A program made the translations under genes and the position numbers. From the NCBI GenBank assembly GCA_949358305.1, contig OX442314.1:22072001-22136000 (forward strand): DNA of 64,000 nt, in the 5' to 3' direction. A model generated the notes under the pieces. The model ran no database searches and had not been told where the DNA came from. It saw only the letters and a list, made by a program, of their open reading frames with translations. Source of the stretch: Strigamia acuminata (taxonomy: Eukaryota). Positions 6,201 to 56,893 of this stretch are shown here, piece by piece; the stretch's first letter is position 1; each line of letters begins with the position of its first letter.

Positions 6201-8353
6201 CGATTTTTATTTAGATAATGTTTACTTGTGAACAAACCAGAAATTCAATAATCTGTTGAAACAGTTAAATAATAAGTGTCAGATGGTGATGTCAATGACA
6301 CCATGAAAATTAACCTTTGGCCTTGCAAAGGGATGAAAAAATGGCAATTACAAAGTTGCACGGTTTGTTTTGTATGAAATAGTTGCTTTTTCTAGATTTT
6401 AACTATTTGTAATAACAGCAGAGATATTGAATGATGTTTAACAATTTGTTTTATTTCTGTAGTCATTGCCTTCTGAAAGAGTGATGTTAAACTGCATTAC
6501 ATTTTATCTTTAATTTCAGCCGACAAATAAAGTTAAAATCTGATAAAAGGAATTTTTCTATAGCAAACAAACCGTATGCTCTTTGTAATTGAACATTTTC
6601 TCATATCTCTAACAGTTTAAAAGTTACAAAAAGGTGGTTGACCATGATTCCAAAGTCAAGGGTCAATTTTCTTAGTTCCATTGAAATCACCACCCAACAT
6701 TTCCTATTTAACTGTTTGAACAGATTTTTGAATTTCTGGTTTGTTCTTCCGTAATTCGCTGGAACACTTTAAAGTCAACACTTTAAAGTACACCACAGTT
6801 TTTCACTAAAAAAAACTGAGCCCTTTGAATCTGTTGTAGAATTTAAATAAGTAAATTACGTGTAGAAGCGATGGAAGAGTCTTTTTTTCAAATTTGCACT
6901 GCAGCAAATGTTTTTAATGGTGAAAATGGAAGGCGTAGTCCTGATATAATAACAGCAGCCGTGGCCGGAATATGAATTAATCCAATATTCCGAGAGCAAC
7001 GAGTTGACTGCATGCCTCGTTTCATATTAACATTGGGCAGAAGAGCGGTTGGTTTTACTGTCGCAGAATGGCAATGCAATTGGTGCATTAGGAGATGAAG
7101 TTGGACTGTGTAGTTTAGTCATCTTCGGATCACCAATTGCGGCGTTTATTGCCGTTTTTAATATTTAGAAAGTCAAGAATGAAATATTACCGACCACGCC
7201 CGATTAGCATGCACCGCTGGCCTGCACCGCTGGCCTGCACCATACTTCTTTTCACCTTGACCGGAATTAAGAATCGGTTTGATGGAGCAGAAGGAAGATG
7301 GTCGTGCACAGGAATCAGCTTGCTGCAATAATTCTCGCGCCGCACATCTTCCATCTCTTTCACCAAGATCGTAATTTCCTTTCAGATGACCGTCATCCAT
7401 CAACATAGTGGACACTGGATGCCAGTAATGGCGCCGACGGACGCGGGGGAATTATAAAAGGAGTTTTTTGTTTAATACTTTGATGAAAAAAAGTTTTTTT
7501 TGATGCCATTTTAATGGGTGAAAGAGGAGGAAATGAGGAATGGAGAATCCCCTATGGATTTTGCTAGCAGGACTTTGGAAAGTCAAGTGGCAATTGATTT
7601 ATTTTTTTTCTCTCGTAATGGTAAGAATGAAATATAAGTTTTCCTCCCGTCTATATTTTCTTTTCTGGTGCACATGGTCAGCCATGCAGGGATAAAATAG
7701 ACTTGCATGAATAATAAATGCGGTAGAAAATGGAAAATGGGGGTTTGACAAATTCCTTCTTTAAAAAAGTGTTTGGTGTCGAATTTTTTTTCTTTTCTTT
7801 TCTTTTTGGGTGGGGACGCGTGGGGAATATTTTATTTGATGGTCTTGGAGTAAGAGTTGGGGTATGGCGGAGTATTACTTAGAAATCCAACTAAATGTAA
7901 ATACCGGTAAGATTCACTGAAGTGTGACAGTCATGGTATGGTAGCATTCTGCATTGTGGTGTTTCTGTAAACAGCAAACACAGAAGAGAAAATGGATGTG
8001 GGCGTGATTATTTTGGTTGAGTTTTTGTGAGTTTTACAAGATAACGGCAATTGAAATTCCTTCATTGTACGAATTACGGTCCACATCGTCTTCATTGAAT
8101 ACAATTCTGCTGGAACTCACGTTTTTTGGTAGTGGGTGCTTCACTTGGAAACATTATAACAATTGGAAGTTCGAGCTGAAGCCGGATCTAACTTGTGTGT
8201 CAGCCATTTTGAATTTGCAAACTCCACTCCTGCTGAGGCTTCTGTTTTTTTGCAGATTTTGGTGATGGTTTCCTTTATGTAACTTAGCCAACATTTCATC
8301 TATTATTAATAAATAATTTGAGATCTAACTCGTGCACTCTCGTGTATACGGAA

Positions 8354-8486: not shown

Positions 8487-8767
8487 GGTTATAGTCATTT
8501 TAGCGACGCTCATTTTAGCGATTTTTACCAAAAAAGTCACATTTTAGCGAACATGTCATTTTAGCGACACAAAAACCTAGGTTTTAGCGACAAGCCGGCT
8601 CAAAAAAGTAGTTTTCATCAAAAAACCAGTAAGGTTAGGTTCGCGGGGGGTCAAGGGGGGGGGGCGCAGCCCCCCCTTGTTAGCCCTTCTTAGGAATTAA
8701 ACCTAGGTTTTTGTGTCGCTAAAATGACATGTTCGCTAAAATGAAATCGCTAAAATGATGTACATCC
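8487..8767. mobile_element. Foldback-type MITE with long TIRs built of cattttagcga subrepeats
   Basis: cattttagcgaacatgtcattttagcgacacaaaaacctaggttt (~8540-8584) is mirrored at ~8699-8743. GG...CC termini; central G/C hairpin gggggggcgcagccccccc. Confidence 0.85.
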
Positions 8768-9867: not shown

Positions 9868-12800
9868 GTTACGATGGCCCGTTGCAGTATTCGATGACCG
9901 GCGGAAACCCAGATGCCATGACAACAGTTCAAGTGATGCCTGCAGCGCCTGCGATGATCCAGTCACCCGTAAGTGGTGATTCGGAGGTGACATCTCAGGA
10001 GAAGAAAATGTCAGGTGGGTATTTGTGGTTTACCATTTCACTCAAGATTTCAATCAAGTTTAGGTTTAGTAAGTGCAGAGTTTGGTTTTTGTTGGCAAAA
10101 TTGATTCGTGTCAGGTTTGAAGTGAATGACTTCTTATTTATATGCAACGATTCGGGGCACGTTCTTGGCAACGCCGTCAACGGACAGATAGCAAGGGAAC
10201 TTGGGATTTTCTCGGTCATATCTTACACTCAAGATCACTTGTGCCAGTGTCTTGAATTTTTTTTTTTTTTGGGAATGGGGTTGCTTGGTTGGATGGGTGG
10301 GGAAGGGGGGGGTTGTGTTGCTCGTTTTCCTTTCCAAGTTAGGATTTACAGTTGTGTGAAGATGGTAGATGGACGTTGTTGCGGCTTTGAAGTTTCTATT
10401 TGTGGCTTTTTCTTGTCAATAATCGAACTTTTTGCAGGTTGAGTTGTAATGGGAAAAGGTAGGACTTCATCTCGCAACTGTCATGTCATTTTTCTGCGAT
10501 ATTTGTTCGGACATAAAATGATTTTTTTTTTATTTTTTTTTTATTTTAAAATTAAATTGTGGCGAAATTGAAAAATTGATTGTTTAGTGGTTTTAAAAAT
10601 GAGTATTTCGAGTTAAAAATGAAGTTAGGATTTTTGTTTTAAATTTATAAATCGTTTCAAAATTTTATTTTGGCTTTTCATGATTTGAAGTCCGAGACAA
10701 ATTGTATTGCTTAATTTAATTTGTATCCGCTCATTTTTTTTTTTGTTTTGAGTGTGGAAAAATAAAACAATCAGTTTTAGTTATTGTTAGGGGGAATAAC
10801 AAATAAATCCACTATTTCTGCCTGTTCCGCCAGACTCAGGTAGTCAATCATCACGAAGTGGAGCTCAGCACCCGATATTGAAACGTTAGCTACAGGTTTT
10901 TCCATTTTTTAAATTTGTTTTTCCTTTTTTTTTTTCGGAGAAAAAAAATGAAGGTCAATACTCGGTAACATCAGTGGATTTAACAGGTACTAACAGATGG
11001 TGAAGGGGGAAAAAATCAACTTCATAGCCGTGTTTGGTCGACCATATGGGTTGCTTGCGTGATGAAGACGAGCTGTGCTGTTGTCAAGGCAACGCATCAT
11101 TTCGGATGTGTTGTTACGGTAAACCGTGACAAACTCACGAATAATGAATGTGACAAATTGCATTTAATTGACGGAAAGTGTAAATTTGCATGGATTGGCA
11201 AAATTGTTTTAATTTAAAAAAAAATTGTGATTGATTGATGGTGGTAAGTTGATGGATGGCGAAGCGAAGCAACAGCTGCGTGGAATATTTGGCGCATTTG
11301 GGTTTGGTTATTGAAGAATTTGTATTTTTTTTTTATTTATTATAATAAGGTGACGTATTGATATCGGAATGGAGTTTTTAATATATTTGCCATTTTTGAC
11401 ATAATTATATTGACATTTTGCGCAATTTTTCAAAAACCGAGGTGCAAAATTGATATCGTGCCATTGGATAAATTCGTCCTTTACCTGACTGCAGTTAAAT
11501 GGAAAATTGTACGCATTCACGATTTTGTGGAGAATGAAATGAACTGACATTGATCATGTGCTTTGAAAGCAAAATCATGTCTTGTACTATCGGGCCAATT
11601 ATTCATTCCGCATTGAGTGCCAACCTCGAAAAGAAAATTCTTTCATCCGCGAGAAGATTCGTTGAATTGTTGACCTTTTTTCCTAACCAATCATTCACCA
11701 CTTTAAATACACTAAACTCATCGTTTCTTCCGAGTTCCGACGACAACAAACAGTCTTATTTCACCACTTGTTCGGCTTCACTGCAACGTTCCCAACAAAA
11801 TTAACCTAAAAGAATGATTTTATGGCAATCTAGGGTTTAGATTTCGATTAAAAACGACATTTTTGGTGTTTTAAAAGTGGACAACGGGATTCCACAACAG
11901 CTCAGCTCGTTTTAAAACCTTGTTAGGTTTTAATTTTAATTTTTAGTAATTTATTACGTACTGCACTAACGATATTTTTTTTTTTTTTTTTTTTTTTAAT
12001 ATGAATTAGAAACGGAACGACGAATGCAACAGTTAAACTTATCGGCGCGCATCGACTTCGACGAACTCGAAAGCCACATCTTACCAATTGAAAGGGACAA
12101 CTCGACGCATAGCTCGCCGGACCTGATCGACTCACCTGACGTGACTGCATCAAGCAAGAACCGCTTCACATCCACTTCACCGAACTCCGACAAATCGAAA
12201 CGGCCGTCTAGCAGCGTAAGGGGGGCTGAGTTTTCCTCTCCTTCATTCCACTTCCCCAAAACGATAAAGTCTAACTGTTCAGCCCTGTCCATTAATTCCA
12301 TCCACCTTCCCTACGCACTACTTCTGCCACAAAGCAAGAAAGATGAATTCGAATACCCCTCGTTTTACACAAACGCGTTCCCGCAAGTCAAAGAGCGAGA
12401 ATTTCCTGCCGCTTATTCCTCGCGCGTGTTCTCCGTGCCCTTACCTTCGTTCACCTCCGACACATTCTCGGTGACCCCCAACTGCCCTTCTAACGAACGC
12501 ACATACACAGTAATCGAGCCTCCTCCGTCCATCCTTTCGAACGCACCTTCAATCGACGGCTCGTCCGATTATAGCCCGCCAAACTGGCCCACCGTACCCT
12601 CGGAAATTTCCCAAGTCCCGTCGACCGATCATTGCTCGAGTCCTTCGTATTACCCCAGCGTGCTGACGATTGAAAAACTTATTCATCAGGAAAGCATTTT
12701 TCCTTTCGTTTCCTCCGCTGACATGGAATTCCTCTCCTGCCGCTCTTCTAGCCGGTCAAAATCATACGATTCCCACCACAAAATTACGCCCAAAGAAACT

Positions 12801-15800
12801 AAATCGTACAATTCGGTCGAGGCTAAATGGAGTGTTTCGAGCAGTAACTCAACGCATTCGCAGACCATTGTCTCGGAGCGCGACAGACGCAAACACAGGC
12901 CAGACTCCTCCTTGTCCAATTGCAGTTCGAATTCGAAATTGTTAGCTCGTTATAAGGTGTACAATCCCGAAACGAAACAGTCGAACGTCCACTCCGAGCC
13001 CGTTTCGCGCATAGAAGTGGATCCGGTAGTTAATAGCAAGACCACCGGGTGTTCGAGTGCCCCTTCTAATTACGATGTGAAAGAGGATCCGCCCTCACTG
13101 TTACCCCGGTTGAGAAAAACGACTTCTAGGTGTGCGAAAATCGTTTTGAGCCCGCAATTGAAGCCCAAATATACCCCGTCTCGGTCGAAAATTGTGACAA
13201 AATTAATGCTCAATGCCAAGAAGAATTCGAGAATTCGATTATCCCAAAAAGCCGTACCGAAACCCACATTTTCGCGCTTGAAATACCCAACTTGCGGCCC
13301 AAAGTCCACTTGTTTGCACCCACAAAAACAGATTTTGCCGCCTTCCGGCTCGAAATCACCTTGTGCACCATTAAAATGTCCGGCCAAGAGTCCCGGCGGT
13401 CCCGGTGCCAAGGGTTTAAAGATAAAAGCTCAAACCAAGACCCCCACAGCTAATAATACACTTTTGAATTCGAAAAAAAAATTCGAACCGCTTCGCTCCA
13501 CGGTGCCACTCACGGTGGACAGTTGTGGCGTGTCGCCAGAATTAATCAAATGTTGCACGCCACGGGTGTGTAAGGAAACGTGCAAGTTAGAACGCGAGGT
13601 TTCTCCGGAATTAATCAAATGTTGCACGCCACGGGTCTGTAAAGAAACGTGCAAGTTAGAACGCGAGGTTTCTCCGGAATTAATCAAATGTTGTACGCCA
13701 CGGGTCTGTAAGGAAATATGCAAGTTAGAACGCGGTGTTTCTCCAGAATTAATCAAAAGCTCTACGCCACGGGTCTATAAGGAAACGAGCAAGTTAGAAC
13801 GCGGTGTTTCCCCAGAATTAATCAAAAGCTTTACGCCACGGGTCTGTAAGGAAACGAGCAAGTTAGAACGCGGTTTTTCCCCAGAATTAATCAAAAGCTT
13901 TACGCCACGGGTCTGTAAGGAAACGAGCAAGTTAGAACGCGGTGTTTCCCCAGAATTAATCAAAAGCTTTACGCCACGGGTCTGTAAAGAAACGAGCAAG
14001 TTAGAACGCGATGTTTCCCTAGAATTAATCAAATGTTCTACGCCACGGGTCTGTAAGGAAACGAGCAAGTTAGAAAGTGGTGTTTCCCCGGAATTAAAAA
14101 AAAGGAGTACGCCACGGTCCGGTAAGAAGACCAGTAAGTCAGAACGTGGTGTTTCCTCAGAATTAAAGAAAAGCTGTACGCCACGGGCCGCTAAGAAGAC
14201 CAATAAGTCAGTTTGTGGTTCCTCATACGCTCGGAAGGGGATTTTTAACCGACAATCCTCGGACTCGAGCGCTACCGGTAGCACTAATTTCGTCGGTCGA
14301 CTTTTCCGTGACGCATCGGAGTCAACACTGGACTTGACGTTAAATGAAAGCCGAAAATCGTCGCAAACGACCGTTTCCACTCCGTTTGCGGGAAAATTTG
14401 AACGCAGCTCGTCACCAACGACTCAGACCGCACCGATCGCGACTTACGTGAATATGTTTAAACAAACGACGAATTGCAGCGACGGTTTTAACCGGTCCCA
14501 AAACGAAATAAATTCGCCGCGCAGTTCCGGGTTCGTGAGAGTCAAGTCCAGTTTTGGTGTCCCGAACTCGGACCAATCCAGGCAAAGCAGTCCGCGGACT
14601 TCGACCGAATGCTCGGAACACGAAACAACGGATAGAAGCGGCATTCCGTCGAGACACGGCTCGAAACGACACAAAAAATCGCACGACTCCGTTGTTACAA
14701 CTTCGACGCTGGATTGTTTCAGTAACCCAACTTTGGCAACCGACACAACATTTGGACAGCCCAAGGAAGTTGTCGGTTTCTCAAGCGATTCGAATTCCCG
14801 GCCAACTGAAACGCAAGCTGGGAAAAACTTGCGCAGACCGTGCGGCGCACCGCAGAAACGGTCAGCAATTCCACGACTGATTAAAGCGCATTTTAATTTT
14901 TCAAAAACACTCCCCACTTGTGTAAAGGGGGATCAAAATGATAATACATTTGTTCACAATAGCGTTGAAGTGGCTTCGAATTATTCTGGCGTGACTTCGA
15001 ATCATTCCGGCGCGACTTCGAATCATTCCGGCGCGACTTCGAATCGTTCCGGCGCGATTTCGAATCATTACGGCGCGATTTCGAATCATTACGGCGCGAT
15101 TTCGAATCATTACGGCGCGATTTCGAATCATTCCTGTGCGACTTCGAATCATTCTTCTGGCTCTGAGTATTGTACTTGTGTTTCCACTTGCTCTTCCTCG
15201 CTTTCCTATCACACCTGCAGTATGACTGAGTGTTATAGTATGTTTTATTTGGTTTGATTTAATTGAATTAGTTTGTTTGTAATGACTGTAAAACTATTTA
15301 TTTATTTTATTTATTTTTTTTTTATTATTTAATAATTTGGAAGTTGAATAAATGAAGTTTACAATTTTATTTTTGTGTTTTTATTTTAGAGTTCGATGGA
15401 AGAAGGTGGTGATGCAAGTAAAAGTAACAGCAGCAATGTGATTCCAGGTGATAAGTTGGAGAATTTGTCCAGTTTCGTGGTGGAACCAGCTCCACAAGGA
15501 TCGCTCCTTAAGTGTCGTATCACGCGTGATCGTAAAGGAATGGATCGAGGTCTTTTCCCAACTTATTATCTTCATTTGGAGAAGGAGGATGGCAAAAGGG
15601 TATTTCGACAAAATGTACAATTGCGTTCAATTGTTTTGCTCACGATTTGTTGTTCTACAATAGGTGTTTCTTTTGGCTGCTCGAAAACGGAAGAAAAGCA
15701 CTACGTCGAATTACTTAATATCAACTGATCCGACGGATTTGAGTCGAAGTGGGGACTCGTTTATGGGGAAGTTGAGGTAAAATAGAATAAAAATGTTTTT

Positions 15801-16697
15801 GGTTTTTAAAAATATTAATTTTGTGATTTAAATTCTAGGTCGAATTTAATCGGAACTCAATTTACGCTTTTCGACGGTGGTGCGAATCCTAGAAAAGGCC
15901 TGGCTGCTAGCGACAGAAACAATGCTCGTCAGGAACTAGCTGCTGTGATCTATGTATGTCTATAAGTAGCATTGCAATGGAGAGGAGAAAAGTGTGTAAC
16001 AAAACGAATTTTTTTTTTTGCAGGAAACCAATGTGTTGGGTTTTAAAGGACCAAGAAAGATGACTATTGTTTTACCAGGAATGACTGTTGATAATCACAG
16101 GGTTGATATGCAAATTAATGTGGTTAGAATCATTTATTAGTGTTGTTCTAGTTTGGAAGATTTGTTAATATTTGTTATTTGTTTTTATAGGACGGTGATG
16201 GACTTCTAGAGAGGTGGAAAGTTAATAATATGGATAACTTAATCCAACTTCATAATAAAACACCAGTATGGAACGAAGGTAACATCTACAGCTTGTGTAA
16301 TGAAATAATTTGATTAATTTATTTTGTTTGTAGAAACACAATCGTATGTTTTGAATTTTGGAGGGCGAGTGACGCATGCATCGGTGAAAAACTTTCAAGT
16401 TGTTCACGACAACGATGGTATACATTATTTATTTAAACCATTTAAACGAGTAAAAATTAGTTTACACTCTTGTAAATGAATTACACGCGTTTATACTCGT
16501 TTAAAGGACAGTTATGTTTGTTTTATATATTTTTTTAATTTTGAACTTTAAATTTATTTCCAGTTGACTACATAGTAATGCAGTTTGGCCGAGTAGCCGA
16601 AGATGTATTTACTATGGACTTTCGTTTTCCAATGTGTGCTCTTCAGGCTTTTGGAATTGCTTTGAGCAGTTTTGATAGCAAGTTAGCATGCGAGTGA
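9868..16697 (+). CDS. ktub: Tubby-family protein (king tubby/TULP), multi-exon, 5'-incomplete
   Basis: Phase-consistent GT-AG exons 9868-10014, 12010-12215, 15390-15599, 15664-15776, 15839-15953, 16024-16122, 16191-16278, 16334-16417, 16564-16697. The translation gives [29 protein letters not shown] and the complete tubby domain ([142 protein letters not shown]). The basic/Gln-rich N-terminal exon(s) typical of tubby were not found in the window. Confidence 0.96.
11046..11118 (+). CDS. Candidate alternative first coding exon of tubby ([24 protein letters not shown])
   Basis: ATG at 11046, 24 codons plus G, donor gtaaac at 11119. Phase 1 matches the 12010 acceptor (G+AA = Glu). Confidence 0.45.
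12010..15257 (+). CDS. Extended/alternative exon of the tubby locus: ~1014 extra Ser/Pro/Lys/Cys-rich residues with tandem repeats
   Basis: ORF 12024-15257 begins inside tubby exon 12010-12215 and reads in frame through its donor (AGC|gtaagg, 12216) with no stop for ~3 kb. It is markedly more GC/CpG-rich than the flanking intron DNA. AATAAA at 15347-15352. Confidence 0.7.
13527..14216 (+). repeat. Coding minisatellite, 10 x 69 bp ([23 protein letters not shown])
   Basis: Directly visible in both DNA and translation. Confidence 0.95.
14976..15164 (+). repeat. Coding minisatellite, 9 x 21 bp ([14 protein letters not shown])
   Basis: Repeated ttcgaatcattccggcgcga(c/t) units. Confidence 0.95.
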
Positions 16698-18156
16698 ACT
16701 TAGGAACAACAACTAAAGTAATTAAAAAGGTGTTTTCGAGAACTAATACCCACTATGTCAATTTTTATGCAATGCAACCAAAAACAAAATGAATTTCATG
16801 CAAAGTGAAATCGTGCACTTGTGTTGTCACCACAGACCGATATATGCGTGTCTCCAAGTACAACTTTAAATCCTTTTGTACATTAAGTGGATTGTTTACT
16901 GTGTTTTTCAGCATTTGAAGATGAATGACGCTTTTTTTCTTCTTTATTTTTGTTTGTTTGTGTGTCTCTTATTTTATTTTAATTTTTTTTTAATTTTTTT
17001 TAATTTTTTTTTTATTTTTATTTATTTATTTTTCTTTTTTGAATTAATCGTTTACTGATTCAGTTTGGAATTTCTTTGCTCGCAGACATTTTGTGTCTGA
17101 ATTTTATGGATGATAATCCTTTTGGAGATACTATAAAATTGTCATAATTTGTAAACTGAACGAGTCAGATGGAAAATTTTCTCTATTTTTCTAAGAAAAA
17201 CTTTTAATTCAGATGACACCCACCATGTAAATTTATTGCAGTTACTTAATGCAACAATTTTTGTGCACTATGTACATTTATTGCAATTTTTGTTAGATGA
17301 TTATTGTGTTTAGAAAAAAAAAATGTTGTTTACAGTTTAGAAAAATTTTTATGTTATTTATACATAGAAATGTATGTAACATCATGAGAAACAAGATTTT
17401 TGTTACAATTTCCGTTCGTTCAAGGTTGTAACTTTGCGTTTCCAAATTGGTTTGTACCATGCTTTCTCTCGCAATGATTTTACTCTCTTACGTGTATTGT
17501 TGATTGATTAAAATATTTTTGGATTTTACGTCCAACCCGGAATTAACTAAAGTATTCAAACATTTTTTGAGGTGAGTTTTGTACTTAAATATATCTTGGT
17601 TGTGGTATTTTAGAGGAAAAAAACGGGTCTCTGTCACCGACAGCTAAGTTTTCAGTGAAAGGCAGGTGGTAGATGCTTTTACGGTTAAAAATCCATTTTC
17701 TTACACATGGGAGATAAAATAAAGTTGTAAAATGAAAAAATATCATTCAAACAGTAAATTTTGCTTCAAATTCACACTCATCTCGCTGTGTTTTGCAGTG
17801 AAGCGATTTTGCGTGAGAGAATTCAGTTTGCTACACTTTGATTACCATTAAAAGGTTGCAACTATTTCAAAAACCGATTAGCATAAATTCTAGAAAATTC
17901 AATTTTTTATTTTTTACAGTTGCATTAATAAATTCGGACATTAAAATTTTTAAAAACTTACTACAGAAAATAATAAACGTTACATACATCAAGGTTAAAT
18001 AAAATATTAAAAAATGATTTAAAACGAGAGTTCATATAATGAAGCGTTGCAATTCAACCTTATTTAACCGAATCACGATGTTTAGGGTTGTGAATGTGGA
18101 GTAAAAGTTGATTCCGAACTGTTGTCAAAAACAACAGGTATACCGGTATTGCCTTC

Positions 18157-19117
18157 TTAGTATCTACACGGACAAGCTGGACAACATTTACAGCAATCGC
18201 ATGGCACAGGCTTTCTTCCACTATTAGGGCTTCCGCAATTACAACATTGGTAGGTTTTGTCACCTGTTTTGCATTGCTCACAACATTGGCAACCTCCATC
18301 GGCGAGTCCGCATTCACATTCTACATCACCGTTCTCTTCCACTTCTAAGTAAAAAGTTACGTTAAACTCTTGATAAAATTAAAGTTTAAGTGTTATATAG
18401 CATACCTTCATCATTTTCTTCAAGAACACCGGCAACTCCAATCATAATGACAATACCACCACCGACAAATCCCATATGGGCAGCAGCTCCATTAGGTTCA
18501 GGAGGATTTAAATCATCCGGTTCAGGAAAATTAAATTCATTCGGTTCAGGAGGATTAAATTCATTCGGTTCAGGAGGATTTAATTCATCCGGTTCAGGAA
18601 AATTAAATTCATTCGGTTCAGGAGGATTAAATTCATCCGGTTCAGGAAAATTAAATTCATTCGGTTCAGGAGGATTTAATTCATTCGGTTCAGGAAGATT
18701 AAAATCATTCGGTTCAGGATTTAAATCATTCGGCTCAGGAAGATTAAAATCATTCGGTTCAGGAGGAATTAAATCATTAGGTTCAGGAGGAATTAAATCG
18801 TTAGGTTCAGGAGGAATTAAATCGTTAGGTTCAGGAGGAATTAAATCGTTAGGTTCAGGAGGAATTACTTCGTTAGGTTCAGGCGGAATTAAATTGTCAG
18901 GTTCATGGAGATTTAAATCATCCATGGCGAATTGCAGTTCCTCGACGTCCGGGTCAGCAGGCTGGTCAGCTAAATCTGCAAGAGCAGCAACAGCTGGGTG
19001 CACAAGTCCATTGGGTTCTGGGTTGTCGACATTGTGTATAATAGCTTCGGCGACTGCAATTAATTCCTCATTGTTTATAATAGCTTCAGGGACTGGAACT
19101 AAATCATCTTGATCCAT
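18157..19117 (-). CDS. Cys-cluster gene A: acidic PEPN-repeat protein with C-terminal 16-Cys domain (299 aa)
   Basis: Exon 19117-18406, 61-bp phase-1 intron (G|gtatgc...ttacttag), exon 18344-18157; 900 nt in frame. C-terminus is DVECECGLADGGCQCCEQCKTGDKTYQCCNCGSPNSGRKPVPCDCCKCCPACPCRY. An Inr-like TCAGTT lies ~57 nt upstream of the ATG. Confidence 0.8.
18490..18905 (-). repeat. Coding minisatellite, ~17 x 24 bp (PEPN[DE]xxP)
   Basis: Repeated ggttcaggaggaattaaatc.. units on +; one unit is 21 bp. Confidence 0.95.
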
Positions 19118-19780
19118 TTTTTCAGTTGATGCTCCTTCTCGAGTTGTTGTTCTGAAGAAATCCCTTTTCGAACTGACATACTGTCACCAAACTCCGACCA
19201 AGAAAACTATTTTGCGATTGTATAATAATTTGCATAAAATATGAAAATAATGTTATTGCAGATTAATTTGAATATTTTAAAGTAAAAAATAAAAAATTAC
19301 TTAAATTCATAGCCGTATGGATATATATATTTAAAATAAAGTTATTATAATCGATAATTTTTAATGTTATCTTGTAAATACTAGAAATCATCATTTGACA
19401 TTTTTTTTATTTTCGAGATTTTATTATTACACAACACAGACAAACGAGTCACTTTCAATTTAAAATTTAAATTAATACTTGAGCGATGTACGGTAATAAA
19501 TTTAAAAAATCATACGTAGATTTACATTTTCTATATACTTTTGTGCTTACGCTTTGTATCGAACCAATATCCAATAAAAAATTTATAAACAAAAAATTAT
19601 TTCTATGCGCTTTTGCTAACTGAAACATGTTTTAAATTAAACAATTTTATTTTTGTTAAAACTGAAGTTGGTAAATTACATTATACAAAAATAACACATG
19701 CAACAATTTCGAATAAATTAATGAACAAAAATTCTTCTAGATCAGTTGAGTTAGTTTGCACTTAATTGGAGGAAATGAAC

Positions 19781-19863
19781 GCATTGAAGCCGACTTTGGA
19801 TAAAGCTGAACCGGGGCGTCCACGTTCCGTATCGGTACACCCAATTCCTCCTCTTGCTCAAGC
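19781..19863 (+). repeat. Inverted copy of 21483-21565 (gene C exon 1), 79/83 nt identical
   Basis: Manual alignment of gcattgaagccgactttggataaagctg...cttgctcaagc against the reverse complement of 21483-21565 gives 4 mismatches and no gaps. Confidence 0.95.
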
Positions 19864-19886
19864 TCTTATACGTATAACTCGCTTCT

Positions 19887-20412
19887 TCACTTGGCACGCT
19901 TTTCGCTTTCATCTTTCGACTCGTTTTTGCATTGACAAGCCACACAGCATTCGCATTTTTCATCCATGTAGCTTACGGTACAAGTGGCAATATTAGAAAG
20001 ATCTTTCATTCCTCCTGGACAGTGCATGCAACAAGAACATGCAGTACATTTGCATTCAACGTCATCGGAACCAGAAGTTTGGTCTGCAATTAAATAATAA
20101 AAAATAAACAGAGTAAATAAAACTCAAATTTCAATTGCCAAATAAATACTTACTCGAATCAATAACAGGAACAACTGCAATGCCAGCAGTAGCTTCACGA
20201 TCAGGAGACAATGATGAAATACGAGCTCGAAGAGGTGTGTTCATTAACGAACTAAAAGGACTACTAAACCTCGGTACACGTGGTGTTACGGGAGGTAAAT
20301 TTGGCATTGGCGACGCAGGAGGCGTTCTAAATTCTTCCTGTTCAAGCGATGTTGGTTCTGTTGGTTTTGATAGTTCATAAAAAGTTTTATTAAGATCTTC
20401 GCTAGGATCCAT
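19887..20412 (-). CDS. Cys-cluster gene B: Pro/Ser-rich protein with C-terminal 12-Cys domain (151 aa)
   Basis: Exon 20412-20154, 70-bp phase-1 intron (A|gtaagt...attgcag), exon 20083-19887; 456 nt in frame. C-terminus is NQTSGSDDVECKCTACSCCMHCPGGMKDLSNIATCTVSYMDEKCECCVACQCKNESKDESEKRAK. Exon 2 does not appear in the supplied ORF track. Confidence 0.8.
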
Positions 20413-21048
20413 GGTTTTGCTTTGTTTAATGCTGCTGCACTAACGTAGATAGCAGATTTCAGCTTATTTGTACTGTTTTCGACAGGGAAATCAATTTCCA
20501 TAGCAGACGAATATTAATTTGAATAGGACACATGATTGGATAAAAAAAACGACGTTAATGAATTTGTTTATTTTATTCTTCACTATTCTTTATTTTTGAT
20601 AGTTTGTCTTTTAAATTAATTGTAATTTCTTGCTTTTTTCTTCATTAAATTGTTATTTTTTACCTTTTTCTTTATTAAATTATCATTTTTTTCATCAATT
20701 TTTTGTTTACTTTTTTAATTTATACTTCATTATTTTTCATTTAAATTATAATTTAACTTACTATGTTAGGATCGCTAAATTATTAAAAAAAAAAAACCGT
20801 ACACCGTAGATTTATATGGTACACCACCTACGAATAAAAACGCATTAAGTTAGTTTTATGAATAAATTTTATTTTTTTATTCCGCACACAAAAATAATAT
20901 AACGAATTAGCAGAACTAGCAAAACGGAACAATTTTTAACAATAAACTTAGCAAGGAAGAAAAATACATTTAAATTTTAAACAAATCAATTTCAACGAGA
21001 CAAAAAACCAATTATTCGGAAACTTTGAATACCATACAATAAATCAAG

Positions 21049-21604
21049 TTAAACGAGAATAGGTTGAAGCAGCGGAGGTGGTGGATCTGGAATAACTTCG
21101 GGTTCGGGCTTCAAAACGGTCAGACATTTGCAAGCAGCGCAGCAAGCACACTCGGTCGGAAGATTTGCGTCGCGAGGCGTACAGTCGCAACGACGAATAA
21201 CAGCGCTGTTTCCCTGCCTACAATAATCGCAGCAGGTACACAGTTGGCAGAGACATTCTCCGTGACTGGTACCATTACCTAAATATAAATCCCAAAGAGT
21301 TAATAAAAAAAATAGCGATTTTTAGTAATAACTAACCAAATGTAACGGAAATAGTGGTATGCCAAGTTACATGTAACTTACCCTGGTTATTATTCCCATC
21401 TTCGGGGGCCACTGCAATTACATGACCAGGATCCGCTCCGATGTTCGGAGCGTTTGGATCGAGAATGGGTTCTCCACCAAGTGCTTGAGCAAGAGGAGGA
21501 ATTGGGTTGACCGATACGGGACGTGGACGCCCCTGTTCAGCTTTATCCAAAGTCGGCTTCAATGCTTTCGGGCTTGCTTCGGTTGTCCTGCCTTTGGTAT
21601 CCAT
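21049..21604 (-). CDS. Cys-cluster gene C: Pro-rich protein with C-terminal 13-Cys domain (150 aa)
   Basis: Exon 21604-21382, 103-bp phase-1 intron (G|gtaagt...atatttag), exon 21278-21049; 453 nt in frame. C-terminus is GNGTSHGECLCQLCTCCDYCRQGNSAVIRRCDCTPRDANLPTECACCAACKCLTVLKPEPEVIPDPPPPLLQPILV. Confidence 0.8.
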
Positions 21605-21986
21605 GTTTGTTAAGTTTGGCGTGCTGCGTAAATCTGTCTGACAAGGAATTTAAATTTCCCGCGAGCTTTATACACAATTTTTTTCGGTGTCGTGCGCAAA
21701 ATAAATTTGCATCAACGTCAAAACACATGACGGACGAATCAGCCAATCAATCATTCCAATTTGAATTACTGGTAGAGACAAATATGGAAATTATTTGACG
21801 TATTTCACGTTACGTAATTTAAAAAATTTCGATGTTATTTGTCTTATCAGTTTCGATATTTAAAAAAATAAATAAATAAAAATACTAAGAATTTGATAAT
21901 TTTAACGTAACATTTTATTCTTATAAAAATACAAACAAAACTCTAAATAAATAAAATAAAACAAAAACTTTAGGCAGTAGCAATGA

Positions 21987-22624
21987 TTATGACTGAGACT
22001 GATTAATTAATTCATTTTGCCTTCCTTCTGGTTCTGAGCTAGAACTAGAAAAAAAGTCAATAACTTCAAACGAAGTAGTAACAACGGGCGCCGTGACTGT
22101 TGGCGGAGACACTTTCGTACTCAACCCAACAAAGTTGGACGTAGATTTCAAATTAAGAGGTCCTAGAATTCTCTTTGCAGGTTCCTGAGTCGAAATCCTA
22201 ATTGATCTCAACGACGAAGGCTTAGGCGGCGTCGATTCCGGTTCACTCGACGCCTAAACGGACAAATCGGTCGGAAAATTCATCAAACTGGAAGACGTCG
22301 TTTCCACCGGTTCGCTTTTAACCGACAGATCCAACGTTGACCTATTATTGATGACATGGAATTTGAAAGATATCAAATTCTGTGTTGTCGAGTTCTCTAA
22401 TTTTGTTTTTTCTTTTTTCTAAATACTGTTACAGCATAGTTATTACTATTAGCAATAGATGGCGCTCCGAAATTGGGCATAGTAGATGATTGTTTAACCC
22501 GATGCCGAGTGCGCAGTCTAGTGTATTCAGGTCTGTGGTTGAACCTAAGGTTTAACATACTTTTCGATTTCAACGTTGCTGAACTGTTAAAAATTCTAAG
22601 AATTGTGAAGTACACAGGAACCAT
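21987..22624 (-). pseudogene. Disrupted coding sequence of a low-complexity Ser/Thr/Pro-rich protein with PxDLS-like and SUMO-type motifs
   Basis: The frame KLENSTT..STLDLSVKSEPVETT..FPTDLSV*ASSEPES..PLNLKST..FEVIDFFSSSSSE continues across an in-frame TAG (22254-22256). There is an apparent frameshift at the A-tract near 22405 from ORF 22624-22397. Confidence 0.45.
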
Positions 22625-22750: not shown

Positions 22751-23074
22751 CCCACATGGTTAATAAATAAATTGAAATTATATTGCAATGTATTTTGAAA
22801 TGCATTGGATTTCATGAGAATGCATTTTGTAATGCATTTTTACATGCTTTTGGTCTGCAAATGAATACATTTTGTAAAATGTATTACAAAATGATTCCCA
22901 ATATAATTATTTGTCAAATATGAATGTATTTTCAAATTGAATTTCTTCAGTTGTATTACGAAATGCATTATTTAATTTACAAATAATGCACTTAATTCAG
23001 TGAGATGCTGTACATTTTGGAATGCATTAAGTGAAAAGCAATTTATTGTCAAATATATTATTTAACCATCTGGG
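22751..23074. mobile_element. MITE / non-autonomous TIR element with CCC...GGG termini
   Basis: Left end cccacatggttaa; right end reverse-complements to cccagatggttaa. Interior rich in atgcattt repeats. Possible 2-bp TT duplication (weak). Confidence 0.6.
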
Positions 23075-34600: not shown

Positions 34601-36218
34601 ATCGTTTAATAGAAAGTGGTGCTGGATGCGCGTCTGTTTTGCACTTTCTTCCTTCCCTTGCATGCAGCGTCACCACTCACAAGTGCTCTGGTTTTTTTTT
34701 TTCTGCATTTTTTCTGCATTTTTTTTGCATTTTTTTTGCATTTTTTTTAATTTTAAACTGGAAATTGTTGAAGGTGAGCTTTACAACCAATTAGTTGGGT
34801 GGAGTTGTTGTCTGAGGCAGGTTGTTGAGCAATGATATCATTTAGTGTATGATCCCGTAAAAAAAAAAATGATTTATTTTTTTCAATTTGAAATTATTGT
34901 TAATTAATTGATTGACGTTTGGTTTTTTTTTTTTTTTTTTTTTTTTTTGGTTTTTTTTTTTTTTTTAGGTTTGTGCATAAATGCAAAACTGAGTCGATTG
35001 ATTGATATATAATGTATAAACTGATGTTTAACCTCCGCTCTTTGCATTATGCAAAGCAATATGTTGAATTATTTTGCAATCGTATGCATTAATCAATCTC
35101 ACGGGGTCGTGGAAATGCTTTTTGACTCGTTCAGTATTATTAGTCAGATGTTGGTGTGTATGACCTTTTGTCGCCTGCGCCATTAAACCTAATTTATTTA
35201 CCTAACCCAACCAATCGCGTTAAATTCGCTCCAACCAACGGACAAAATCACCCGAAAATCGTCACAAAAAACATAATTATTTCCACGTAACGGTAAAAAT
35301 TCGTCTTTATCATCCATTACACCCCTGTAACCCAAACTGGAACTTTAAAAACCATGTTTAGGCATATAATAAAAAGCTTATCCAACCAACTACCGAGAAT
35401 TAAATGGGTTGTAAAAAAAAATCAAATCGATTAACAGATTTCATCATCATCAAAAAAAAAAAAAAAGAAAAAGAAACTCCCACTGCATATATTCCACTAA
35501 AAAGAATCGAAAAGCAATTACCCAATCAAGACATAAAAAAAAAACACAATACATTAACATATTCCACACTACGGAACATAAATTCAATTTTTACGACTAC
35601 TTGATAGTCACATTTTCAGTAATTCAAGCTGCTGATGAAATTAGGGGGACTCGTTAAAAGGCCCTGGCAGAGCCACAGCCCAGTTGGCAGCGAGCATGCG
35701 CACTCCATTTTACTCGTATTGTTTACGTTTTGGGCTTTACTCGTGACCCCCGTACAGGAACGAGGCGAGCAACGAACGCAATTAGACGAGAAAAGCACGA
35801 GAATTAATAAAAAAGTAGCGTTGCTATCGACAGAGAATGCTCGGGAGCGAAATCGTAACTTACCGGTGATGGTGGTTTGCGTTTTACTCGCCGTCGACGA
35901 TGCTGAGTTGGGCGAATTTGCAGGCGCGGGAGGAGTCGTTTGCGACGTCGTTTTATCACGAGTGTCCGAAGCTGCAGCATTCACGGGCACCGGGGTCCAC
36001 TCGTACCTTCCGGTCAAGGGTTTTTCCGACTTGAAGTTGAAGTTCCATCTTTTCGTGTCCTGTCTGCTGATGCGTGCCATTTCGCGGTGCAACAAACGAC
36101 GTGTCTGCTCGTGGTCGACCGGACCGAAGAGGTTTCGACGCGCGGTGGTCGGTACGTTTTGCTGGGGTGTGCATGCGCGGCGTTCCTCCATGTGAAAACA
36201 AGCCACGGTCGTGCTCAT
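31680..36218 (-). CDS. dap: Cyclin-dependent kinase inhibitor, Cip/Kip family (dacapo/p27/p21-like), 142 aa
   Basis: Exon 36218-35864 (start context gcaccATG; CDI domain ARRNLFGPVDHEQTRRLL..KRWNFNFKSEKPLTGRYEW), phase-1 intron (G|gtaagt...tcaaccag), exon 31753-31680. Splicing gives QTTITDYMRQRKRLSTENNIISTKKNKAS*, a PIP-degron/NLS tail as in Dacapo/p21. In-frame upstream ATGs exist (36419, ~36317). Confidence 0.93.
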
Positions 36219-51118: not shown

Positions 51119-53279
51119 TGTTATTATTATTATTAATATTTTGTTGTATTTACCGTGCTGCCTCGAATAAACGCCGGGTCCAAATAGGCGCCGGGACTCC
51201 TTTAACCGCCGGGGGGGTCAGCGGCGTTTATTGCACAGTGTACCCTGCCAGCACATAAATATGATTCGCGACCAGATACACAGAGATGAAGTACAATTTG
51301 CCAAAGCAAAAGAAGAGAAAAAGCAATTTGGAAAAGAGACAGAATAACAAGACCTGCTACAATTGTCAAAAGACTGCTAGAGCAAAGTCAAATTCTATAA
51401 TTACAATGGATTAGGACACATGGCTGCTGATTGTAAAAAGCCGATAGTTTAATCCAACTCTTGCGGGAGAGGACAAGGTAGACAAAGCGGAAGAGGACAA
51501 GCCGCTAGAGGATGATCTAAACCAGAAGCAGTGTCAACTGTATGGGAACATGAAAATGAAGGTAAATACGCAAGGACATGCAACGAATGGCACGAATGGC
51601 ACGAATGGCAACGATAATGGCAGGGGGAAAAGATGAAGAAAAAGACAAAATAAAAGACGAAGAAAATAAGAAAAGAAGATGAAATTGCAGGAATTTCAAC
51701 ATATTGTGTCGAAGAAACAGAAGCGAACACTGACGAGCTAAAATGGCTGATAGACTCTGGAGCAACGAGTCACATGATGACGGAAAAAGAAAGCTTTTGC
51801 AAATATGAAGAATGTGATGTTGACATTGAATTGGCAAACAAAGATGGAAAAATAAAAGCCTTTGGAAAATGAGACATTATATGGCATCAAGATGAACAAA
51901 ATGAAGAATTGAAATTGAAAGATGTATTGCACATGTTCCTGAGCTGGGATTCAATTTGATGTCAGTGCCCAAGATAGTGGACGATGAAAATATTGTCATT
52001 GAATTCCGCAAAAAGCAAGTTATAGAAACAATGAGATGATGAACATCACTCTGATGACGGTGGAAAGAAAAGGGAACAAGTTTATAGCAAGAGGATGAGC
52101 ATTAAATGCTGAAGAGGCAAATTAGCTGAAAACATGACCAGAAGATGGCGTCAGCGATTATGATAAATAAGTCACGAGACGATTAAACAAATGAAGAAAG
52201 AAGAATTAGTATTAGGTTTAAAAGGAGCCAAGAAGTTAAAAGTGTCTGTGAAGCCTGTGTAAAAGGCAAGATGAAGAGGAAACCACATAAGAGAATTGCA
52301 GTACGCCAAATGAAGAAAATTATGGAATTATTCCACACTGATCTCATTGGACCAATTACGCTGGAATCCTTAGATGATTTTAGTCTATTTCTAATGGTGA
52401 GAACATTAAAGAAGAAAAGCGAAACTTTCGCAGAGTTGACCAGTTTAATAATAAAGATGGAGACACAAACTGGATTAAAACTTAAAAAATTAAGATCCCA
52501 ACAAGAAATATTTGTTGGTTATCCAAGTGGAAGAACGGGATACAGAATTTATGATCCCACAACGAAGAATGTAACAGAAAAAAGATATATTCAATTTGAT
52601 GTAGACCAATTAGGATCAAAATTCATAAATGAAGATGAAAAGAGCTCAAATAAAAGTGAAGAAACAGTGACGGTTAATCTTTTCGAATATGAAGATCAAA
52701 ATGAAGACGTAAGTGAAGAAGGAAGAACAGATGAGGAAGATCAACAAGATAGAATAGACTTCCAAAATCGAAATGAAGAAGCTACAAACAGACCATAAAG
52801 GAATGAAAATTGAAATACTTTGAGAAGAGGGAGGAATAAAGGAGATACAAATGAGATGATAAGTGTATGAATTAAAGAAATATTAGAAGAAAGAGAGAGG
52901 CAATTGCAAACCCAAGGTGTAAGAAGATCAGAACCGATCAAAGAAAAGGCGATAATTACGCAAGAAGTTTTTTAACTAAAGGATTGAATGGAGATATTCT
53001 GGAAGGATTACTTAAACAAGTTATGTTAACTCAATAATATTTCTACTTATCATAAATCCAAGGAGTAGATTTGTTATTATTGTTAATATTTAGTTGTATT
53101 TGTGTCATTGATGTTTTAATCTAGTGTATTATTTTTACACCAGAGTGTGCCACTATGTAATTTATTTTATGACATGTGACAGGATGTGCCATTTCCTGCT
53201 AATTAAAAATTCTGTGTGTTCTTGTGTTTTAGAGGAAATAAGAAATGTTTTTATTTCAAGCCAACTTAGAGAAGATTCA
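51119..53279 (+). mobile_element. Degenerate, internally deleted Ty1/copia LTR retrotransposon
   Basis: Domains in copia order: decayed zinc knuckle (TCYNC; GHMAADC ~51414-51434), protease WLIDSGATSHM (51744-51776), VPELGFNLMSV, CEACVKGK, integrase ELFHTDLIGPI..DDFS..KKKSETF..KKLRS and IFVGYPSGRTGYRIYDP. Many stops and frameshifts; no RT/RNaseH. The 3' LTR starts TG at 53072 after a purine tract, and its first ~30 nt match 51119-51150. Candidate TSD AATTT (51114-51118 / 53280-53284). Confidence 0.88.
51153..51240. mobile_element. Tiny TA-flanked TIR element (Tc1/pogo-type MITE relic) at the break point of the copia 5' LTR
   Basis: aataaacgccg...cggcgtttatt inverted repeat, TA on both sides, GC-rich island in AT-rich DNA. 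Confidence 0.55.
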
Positions 53280-54944: not shown

Positions 54945-56893
54945 TCATTCGTCTCGTCCGGGTTCGAAATCAGATCTGAGATGCTGTAGAGGGTTGTGTT
55001 GGACGAGCTTGTGTCCATCTGATCGTTGAATTTGTTGAGCTACATCATCATCTGGTTCAGCCGGTTGAAAACAACATTTTGGACTGCAGTAGAGTGCATC
55101 CAAAGCACAACGGCATTCGAGGCATGGGTCAGTTGCAACTCCAACTAATTCGCCAATACGGTATTTCACTCCTAGGATTTCACAGCCCACTAGAAACAAA
55201 GACGACGAAAAAGAAAATTAACAGAAAAAATGGCGACCGATACAGACTGCTTTCAGTCGCAGTGGGCATGCGCACGACATTTTACACATGACTTTATCAA
55301 TGCGTCTAATCGTAAGGGTTAGGTAAACGTGTTTAAATCGAATTTAGAAAAGTTTCGAATGAAATCTGTACACTTAAATCAAATTTTAGTCTTGTTATAT
55401 TTTCTATTTCAATTTATAAATGCCTTAATTTTCAAAAATGGAAAAGAAGAAAGTAAAAGGGAATAAATAATACGTACGCTGTGAAATGTTTTTACTTGCG
55501 GTTAGACTCGTTTCTGGTTTTGTAGGTTTTGTCTTCCTTGGAATTGCTAAATGAAATTTAAATTTCATACATTTAACTTAATTTCCAATCTTTGACATTT
55601 ACTTACGGCATAGATATAGGGAACGTTCGCACACTCCTTCGTACGTTAATTCAACACATCCTTCCGGTGCGGGAGGACAATTTTTCCAATAACAATCAAT
55701 GTAACCATTTCTGCAGAAACAAAAATGGCAAAGATGTTTTCGGCCTATGTTAGCACCCGATTGGTAAACCTTTCCCTCAAAAGCACAGGAACCTTCAGTT
55801 TTATTCACTGAAAATGTGACCATTTGGTTACTTGGGTAATTTGCTAAACTTACGAAACGATCGTACCTGTAATCGGTTCAAGAGCATAGAAGTTTCGTCC
55901 TTCAAGTGGATTTATGTTTGTATCAACTTCGGTCAATAAGTTTTCGTTTTGAGTAGTTGATGATGATATTGTACTGCTTGGTATTAATGGTGAGGATGAC
56001 AATCGACCTCCTTTCAGTCTTCTACTAGGAAAACGTGGTCTTAGGCGTTGACCAAATGAAGGTTGATTTTCCGTTGCAGTGTTGTCAGTTTGCACATCTT
56101 CAATGCCTTTCTGAAGAGGAACTAACAAAGAAGTTATTTTATTACTTTTATATGGGAAATTTGTCAATTATTGGCAAACATCTTGGAAGAAAGTACCGTC
56201 AACATTGTTTTATATTGCAAGGTGCAGAGTTTGCTTTTTTAAATACAAAGTGTAGCATTAGAATTACATTAGTGAAAAAAAAATTAAGAAACGATGTGTG
56301 TTGCAATTTACCGGAAATAAATCACAAACATTGCAAATTAACATTGGCTGAAATTTAGGTTTATTTTGCTATTTAAAATAAATATTTCACATTTGTTGTT
56401 GTTTTTATTTAATGTTGCAATCAGACCCAGAGAGGGGACTCCAGGGCCACTTGGATCAAGCCCCAGCCCAAGGGGGCCCCCAAAGTCCAGCGATTTCGAT
56501 TTAAAAATAAAAAAAAAACTGGATAATTAGTGTTACGTTAACTTGATCTGTAATAAAAATAATAAATGGAAAAAAAAACTCATGCTTTGTGCATTTATGG
56601 GTTTTATTCGTACAGACCCGGGCATTTGTAACTCCCCATGTCGCATCTAAAAGGCCCTGCTTGTAAATGTGTGTTAATAGTTGTGATTTCAACATATCTG
56701 GCAAAATTTAACGTTTTTATTTAGATTGTCGCCATTAAACTCTTTCTGGTGATAAATTTGATCACACAGAGGCTTATTTAACTGAGAAAAATGCATTTTT
56801 TTGATGCTTTCATTTGTACTACTAACCTTGAGATGTATCAGGAACACAGGCTAATAGGAAGAAGAGGATAACACACTTGTTGAATAGCGCCAT
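54945..56893 (-). CDS. Secreted protein with two VWC (von Willebrand factor type C)-like Cys-rich modules
   Basis: Signal-peptide exon 56893-56827 (MALFNKCVILFFLLACVPDTSQ). Further exons ~56110/56106-55867, 55807-55607 (CAFEGKVYQSGANIGRKHLCHFCFCRNGYIDCYWKNCPPAPEGC..GVC..YLC), 55546-55478 and 55189-54945 (GCEILGVKYRIGELVGVATDPCLECRCALDALYCSPKCC). The junction between the first two exons is unresolved (either the 56106 acceptor or a missing small exon). An acceptor at 56904 implies an upstream non-coding exon. Confidence 0.82.

Follow-up and report, generated by a model that had tools for sequence, protein, structure and literature searches.

Small cysteine-cluster domains are hard to detect by homology, and new ones have tended to mark chromatin, metal or conflict functions. 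The CXC superfamily, which takes in the CXC domain of MSL2, tesmin/LIN54 and pre-SET, follows the consensus CX[C/H]X2-13CX4-7CXCX5-60CX2-4CX1-2CX2-15CXN, and Zn3Cys9 clusters of about 50 residues are known to bind DNA (PMC3447885). Myriapod MT1 metallothionein domains and the chilopod CRS proteins are defined in PMC12800444, which also places an ordinary MT1S in a Strigamia species; chelicerate D2a and D3 metallothionein patterns are given in PMC13168519. Myriapod MT1 proteins are recognised by metal-thiolate complexes at a Cys/M2+ of 2.5-3. The centipede protein LforCRSa is also rich in cysteine and has a motif related to those described below; its recovery with metals was poor and the study judged that it is no metallothionein (PMC12800444), so cysteine richness is no guarantee of metal binding. 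Cysteine-cluster CxC domains also ride on KDZ transposons (PMC12062965), and in Drosophila young hairpin RNAs suppress drive genes (PMC10317233).

Here we describe three predicted genes, A, B and C, in a 64,000-nucleotide stretch of contig OX442314.1 of the geophilomorph centipede Strigamia acuminata (the window; positions are counted from its first letter). We confirmed that this three-gene feature is real and found it to be larger than the first-pass annotation described. None of the published CXC, metallothionein and CRS patterns describes the 12-cysteine skeleton that the genes share, and the domain is compact enough to be studied directly for metal content and by NMR.

Gene models and the shared cysteine domain

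All three genes are on the minus strand; they sit downstream of a tubby gene and converge with it. One of the tubby exons matches Strigamia maritima at 96% identity, against 53-81% for the other matches listed, and identity to that species across the tubby exons is 89-98%. Nesting of the three genes within a tubby intron was considered and rejected, as tubby ends at 16697. Gene A (299 amino acids, 16 cysteines) has an acidic, Pro-rich exon 1 at 19117-18406 with an 8-residue (24-nt) tandem repeat at about 18490-18921, a predicted intron of 61 nt at 18345-18405, and an exon 2 at 18344-18157 that carries the 16-Cys domain and the stop codon. Gene B (151 amino acids, 12 cysteines) has a Ser/Pro-rich exon 1 at 20412-20154, a predicted intron of 70 nt at 20084-20153, and an exon 2 at 20083-19887 encoding a 12-Cys domain, a basic tail and the stop. 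Gene C (150 amino acids, 13 cysteines) has a Pro-rich exon 1 at 21604-21382, a predicted intron of 103 nt at 21279-21381, and an exon 2 at 21278-21049 encoding a 13-Cys domain, a Pro-rich tail and the stop. All three introns are GT-AG and phase 1, and their lengths fall within the range of six adjacent tubby introns (55-146 nt). Each gene starts with ATG GAT and has an A at -3, an in-frame stop lies 10-23 codons upstream of each ATG, and cysteines are confined to exon 2, with none in any exon 1. The anatomy recovered from the sequence was as first described: the proposal of three two-exon genes on one strand held in its coordinates, its intron positions and phase, and its counts of 16, 12 and 13 cysteines, with splicing predicted. 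The exon 1 sequences do not align with one another, as had been stated. The absence of signal peptides had also been claimed; by hydropathy, B and C lack a hydrophobic stretch at the N-terminus and A has no signal-peptide-like start, but A does have a hydrophobic patch near its N-terminus and, at residue 214, a hydrophobic stretch of 19 residues.

Alignment of the three exon 2 peptides gave 15 invariant columns, made up of 12 cysteines together with E, G and A. The pattern EC.C.{2,6}C.CC..C, which was derived from the feature itself and is hence post hoc, matched three times in the window and in none of 200 local shuffles, and no further copy of the domain beyond A, B and C was found in the window. 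Not one of 2,000 full shuffles scored as high as the observed A-B, A-C or B-C pair. When the cysteines were held fixed, the observed score was reached in 231 (A-B), 77 (A-C) and 20 (B-C) of 2,000 shuffles; the cysteine skeleton therefore carries most of the exon 2 similarity, in agreement with the earlier view that almost nothing else is conserved. The 12 shared cysteines are retained without nucleotide similarity beyond short words. The domain had been described as a duplicated CxC..CxCCxxC unit, and repeated lobes are indeed present, but the duplication is imperfect, with a middle motif that is CxC in A and C and a single C in B. The domain spans 42-51 residues and is 29-31% Cys, with spacers of 8-11 residues and 3-8 hydrophobic or aromatic residues, whereas the whole proteins are only 5-9% Cys. 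It contains 5, 3 and 5 K+R against 5, 4 and 4 D+E in A, B and C, and so is not net basic. Its cysteine spacing may resemble that of HIV Tat and ciliate metallothionein.

Comparison with published patterns placed the domain in none of the families considered. The CXC consensus was matched by none of the three proteins, with or without its terminal Asn, which agrees with the mismatch to MSL2 and tesmin first noted. The CxC-repeat patterns of MT1 D1a/D1b, the spider and chelicerate D2a/D3 patterns and the full chilopod CRS unit likewise matched none of the three, and the CRS sub-motif CxCCxCC occurs in A only. Pfam gave no match to the three exon 2 peptides at E up to 10, and NCBIfam and PHROGs gave none to the domain. 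In a word-indexed set of 5.8 billion proteins, the three-sequence alignment drew 109 candidates among longer proteins (0 at E<=1) and 3 among proteins of near length (0 at E<=10), and HMMER returned 0 of 1.84 billion protein representatives at E<=0.001. The two matches among PDB sequences were non-significant (E 1.1 and 5.4). In the ESM Atlas, gene C had no usable match, and gene B had a best score of 0.80 with one Metallothio_5 cluster at 0.77, which is chance level. Metagenome contigs and bacterial and archaeal genomes yielded no relative, exact sequence look-ups found 0 of 5, and the literature covered, which leaves most subscription journals outside, held no description of this cysteine family. 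AlphaFold2 models had mean pLDDT values of 42.8 and 55.0, too poor to interpret, and a fold search with the latter gave no match, a result that is uninformative at that confidence. Distant relatives can be missed because the profile was built from three sequences only. In addition, many repeats are absent from the S. maritima draft, which covers 176 of about 290 Mb (PMC4244043); this may explain missing annotation or relatives. Within the reach of a three-sequence profile, these searches fit the proposal of a lineage-restricted, unrecognised family.

A multi-copy block and its reading frames

The three genes lie in a block of about 5 kb at 17728-22550, with approximate edges at about 17660-17730 on the left and near 22550 on the right. 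Diverged contigs of two public runs (X1 and X2), which span introns and intergenic DNA, pile up over about 17,700-22,550. Long contigs near-exact to tubby and its introns set the single-copy depth, at about 285-317 for X1 and at 93-98 for X2. By comparison, individual contigs over A, the 3' end of B and C reached depths of 1432-1794 (X1) and 415-583 (X2), or 4.3-6.2 times single-copy; depth was taken from single contigs because summed depth is not copy number. A further copy, also diverged and covering A with the DNA downstream of it, was present at single-copy depth. One contig of depth 1642 joins the DNA upstream of A to the A-B spacer, with a side of 45 letters, and the joint between C and a fourth reading frame, D, in other copies has a side of 28 letters only, so that the linkage seen in other copies is that of A with the A-B spacer. 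The block occurs in at least three sequence types, and from the depths we infer a copy number of roughly 5-10. Some of the differences between contigs may be allelic, since at some sites in A the letters of X1 and X2 are not those of the window. The multi-copy state of the block had been missed in the first reading.

Differences among the copies point to maintenance of the reading frames. Among the best-supported rows (best 12 of 63 and best 12 of 122), all five coding indels were multiples of three (net 189, 81, 42, 66 and 3 nt among the rows shown) compared with 1 of 18 non-coding indels (Fisher p 0.0002). At two of the five coding joints the letters between the two sides are unknown, and the 24-nt repeat of A by itself biases the count towards in-frame indels. 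Excluded from the count were the second of two 19781>19870 joints, every row within the 22751-23074 repeat, and joints that were of another kind or had a side shorter than 30 letters (16027>23267, 17594>20632, 19306>19712, 19514>20688, 21804>22075, 19325>19376 and 20660>20618). Exon 1 of A varies in length in frame in other copies, and exon 1 of C has a 3-nt in-frame insertion in others; the intron of C, by comparison, holds three 1-nt deletions of other copies. The 19 coding substitutions in the best-supported rows (best 40 of 317 and best 40 of 420) comprised 8 synonymous and 11 residue-changing changes and no stops, and both displayed substitutions in cysteine codons were silent. In these best-supported rows, the pattern of indels and substitutions, although short of a full dN/dS analysis, favours coding genes.

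Short motifs set the tails apart; all of the patterns used (PxDLS, CDK, TPPxS, SUMO and SIM) were picked after the sequences had been seen. Exon 1 of B contains three CDK-type sites (285 of 20,000 shuffles) and one TPPxS motif (567 of 20,000), which we take to be phosphorylation sites and a degron-like element. Frame D, at 21987-22418 on the minus strand, has no cysteines, and in this copy an in-frame stop codon (22254-22256) interrupts it. It holds three PxDLS-like motifs (2 of 20,000 shuffles), presumably of the CtBP-binding type, and a SIM-like motif (7 of 20,000), whereas its SUMO-site-like motif is non-significant (2,242 of 20,000). The repeat of A is weakly similar to Cornifin/SPRR in Pfam (26.2 bits, under the family cut-off of 34.8 bits). 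A match of the same repeat to CsrB in Rfam was sub-threshold and was rejected.

An inverted copy of part of C exon 1 (21479-21569) lies 1.6 kb from its source, at 19777-19867 on the plus strand. It is antisense within the predicted 3' UTR of B, starting 20 nt past the B stop and ahead of the first AATAAA, and is 93% identical to its source, with 6 mismatches over 91 nt and a longest perfect run of 31 nt. A transcript of B, as predicted from the sequence, would be antisense to C mRNA over the 91-nt stretch. Other contigs skip this fragment (joints 19754>19870 and 19781>19870), and it is therefore limited to some copies.

Candidate roles of the block

Our best reading is that the locus holds a family of cysteine-cluster proteins not described before, on a cassette present in several copies. 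As to function, we lean tentatively towards A, B and C being predicted paralogues on an amplified block that act as intracellular regulators, each with a disordered tail and a C-terminal zinc-cluster domain, an account we regard as plausible though somewhat short of probable. We predict that the C-terminal domain is organised around three to four zinc ions; its two CxCCxxC lobes would close on a shared zinc-thiolate cluster. By analogy with CXC-type clusters, this cluster may dock on DNA, chromatin or a partner protein; plain DNA binding is weakened as a proposal because the domain is not net basic. The 42-51-residue, 12-Cys cluster would then be a docking module with interchangeable tails that give differing outputs, that of A acidic and activator-like and that of B timed by phosphorylation. 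Frame D, before its breakage, could have recruited CtBP and SUMO-dependent repressors, and through the antisense insert after the stop of B this copy might lower the level of C-type mRNAs. The block would have been amplified as a unit.

It is also possible, although we consider it somewhat unlikely, that the block is selfish. It would then be either a meiotic-drive cassette or a part of some large mobile element or endogenous virus, as its cargo or as a non-autonomous derivative; its zinc-cluster proteins would act on host chromatin or the cell cycle for the benefit of the element, and its antisense insert would be a young suppressor. The joint amplification of compact same-strand genes in at least three sequence types, the density of motifs in disordered proteins and the 91-nt antisense fragment placed within the predicted 3' UTR of an adjacent gene are all consistent with this, as are the precedents of cysteine-cluster domains on KDZ transposons and of hairpin RNAs that restrain Drosophila drive genes. 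Several diverged genomic copies are found, as for a DNA transposon or Helitron. However, around the approximate edges and in the flanks of this copy we found no convincing terminal inverted repeat, target duplication, direct repeat or Helitron end, only two weak inverted matches with no duplication. No transposase or Rep/helicase matched Pfam in the block frames scanned, a result compatible with a non-autonomous element, and those frames gave no viral Pfam match either. Viral contigs and PHROGs, collections poor in animal DNA viruses, gave no viral homology, and no viral hallmark gene lies in or beside the block. The introns, moreover, are ordinary and host-like, and DNA repair can yield a functionless templated insertion. 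The first-pass annotation had named membership of a high-copy transposon or virus as one outcome that would undo its proposal; the block is indeed repeated, in several diverged copies, but neither in it nor beside it did we find a transposase, a terminal repeat or a gene that is a viral hallmark. The most specific form of this account, a transposase-free selfish centipede cassette that spreads as a unit and combines three new-fold zinc-cluster paralogues, a CtBP- and SUMO-recruiting partner and its own antisense brake on gene C, we judge unlikely. Were it true, a myriapod would have a drive or mobile-cargo system that carries a new metal-cluster domain. More generally, a mobile or driving block would offer a testable genetic-conflict system in myriapods; otherwise, the locus would exemplify a gene family concealed in repeats, where annotation may pass it over.

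Alternatively, the proteins might be metal buffers or Cys-cross-linked structural proteins (of sperm or cuticle, for example) of a metallothionein- or CRS-like kind, with the tails as spacers, which we think rather unlikely. The domain is about 30% Cys, A contains the CxCCxCC of the CRS unit (PMC12800444), and the repeat of A has its faint Cornifin/SPRR resemblance. Against this stand the failure of the MT1, spider D2a/D3 and full CRS patterns to match any of the three proteins, the low cysteine content of the proteins as wholes, and the ordinary MT1S that a Strigamia species already has. In addition, tails of 83-247 residues precede a single domain, as against 2-4 residues in MT1S and 11-18 in CRS proteins with three or more repeats. 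A decayed or never-expressed repeat, with the gene models as its artefact, we consider very improbable: D is broken in this copy and the protein searches above found no protein on record with these sequences, but three intact frames with canonical introns, 12 shared cysteines and frame-keeping indels (5 of 5, best-supported rows) argue otherwise, and the repeats omitted from the S. maritima draft (PMC4244043) can explain the missing annotation. Finally, the least credible reading makes the proteins venom or glue components or other secreted peptides rich in disulfides. Centipedes have many Cys-rich secreted peptide families (PMC4379518), but two CxCCxxC lobes appear in none of the venom frameworks from that source compared by eye, B and C lack a hydrophobic N-terminal stretch, and an in-frame stop precedes each ATG by 10-23 codons.

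Comparison with described systems

The Drosophila Nmy/Dox hairpin-RNA and drive systems resemble this locus in that their multi-copy genes are young and that a nearby transcript carries a piece of a family member in inverted orientation. They differ in that here there is one antisense arm, 1.6 kb from its source, and the proteins are unrelated. The CxC domains of KDZ transposons share with A, B and C the combination of cysteine clusters with multi-copy, possibly mobile settings, whereas our domain has no Pfam match of any kind at E up to 10 and our block has no transposase.

Chilopod CRS proteins, from Lithobiomorpha, are likewise from centipedes, have no evident signal peptide and are built on CxCC-based motifs (CxCCxCC in A). 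They carry three or more repeats with short Gly/Lys-rich linkers behind their 11-18-residue N-terminus (PMC12800444), whereas A, B and C have a single domain. The myriapod and chelicerate metallothioneins (MT1S, MT1L, MT2 and MT3) share the local cysteine content of about 30% and the CxC and CC motifs, but A, B and C have long tails and aromatic and hydrophobic residues. The N-terminus of MT1 is 2-4 residues in MT1S and up to 37 in MT1L, compared with the 83-247 residues before the first cysteine here; together with the unmatched D1a/D1b patterns, this supports, for the myriapod proteins, the separation from classical metallothioneins that was first drawn.

The CXC superfamily differs in that A, B and C share 12 cysteines with two CC doublets and have no Pfam match. 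In common with it they have a cysteine cluster of about 50 residues, a CxC opening and low-complexity host proteins, and B ends in CxN. By analogy, the proposed way of working would also be alike, and the family may therefore represent a CXC-like mode of action without CXC membership.

Tubby gene and a large frame in its intron

A tubby gene with short introns lies on the plus strand at 9868-16697, and its exons share 89-98% identity with the Strigamia maritima protein. Within one tubby intron, on the same strand, we found an open frame of 1085 codons (12000-15257) that contains tandem repeats of 69 nt and 21 nt and has the contig depth of single-copy sequence. Its sole Pfam match was below threshold and was judged spurious. 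This frame is possibly a giant alternative tubby exon or a nested gene.

In and near the multi-copy block

In contigs from one sequencing run, X1, depth reached 4303 at 22368-22548, above that of the remainder of the block, the multi-copy stretch holding the cysteine-rich genes A, B and C. This stretch may be a separate repeat or the end of the block. A small, high-copy, MITE-like repeat with inverted ends lies at 22751-23074; when depth is added up over contigs, it exceeds tubby roughly 200-fold. Inside the block is a small plus-strand frame (19775-19990) in which an ATG is followed, in frame, by the inverted fragment of C exon 1, such that it begins with 29 residues from C; this arrangement probably arose by chance.

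Other probable mobile-element traces and coding sequences

Two inverted-repeat pairs, at 6230-6746 (arms of 99 nt, 82% identity) and 8540-8743 (arms of 45 nt, 100% identity), are probably small transposons, and a plus-strand fragment matching a retroviral polymerase SH3-like domain (52187-52798) is probably an LTR retrotransposon relic. A short cysteine-containing frame on the minus strand at 54951-55217 returned no Pfam matches at E 0.1; by eye, it resembles a von Willebrand C-type exon. Also on the minus strand, at 35862-36218, is an exon from a gene for a dacapo-like cyclin-dependent kinase inhibitor of the Cip/Kip type (Pfam CDI, E 1.4e-19).
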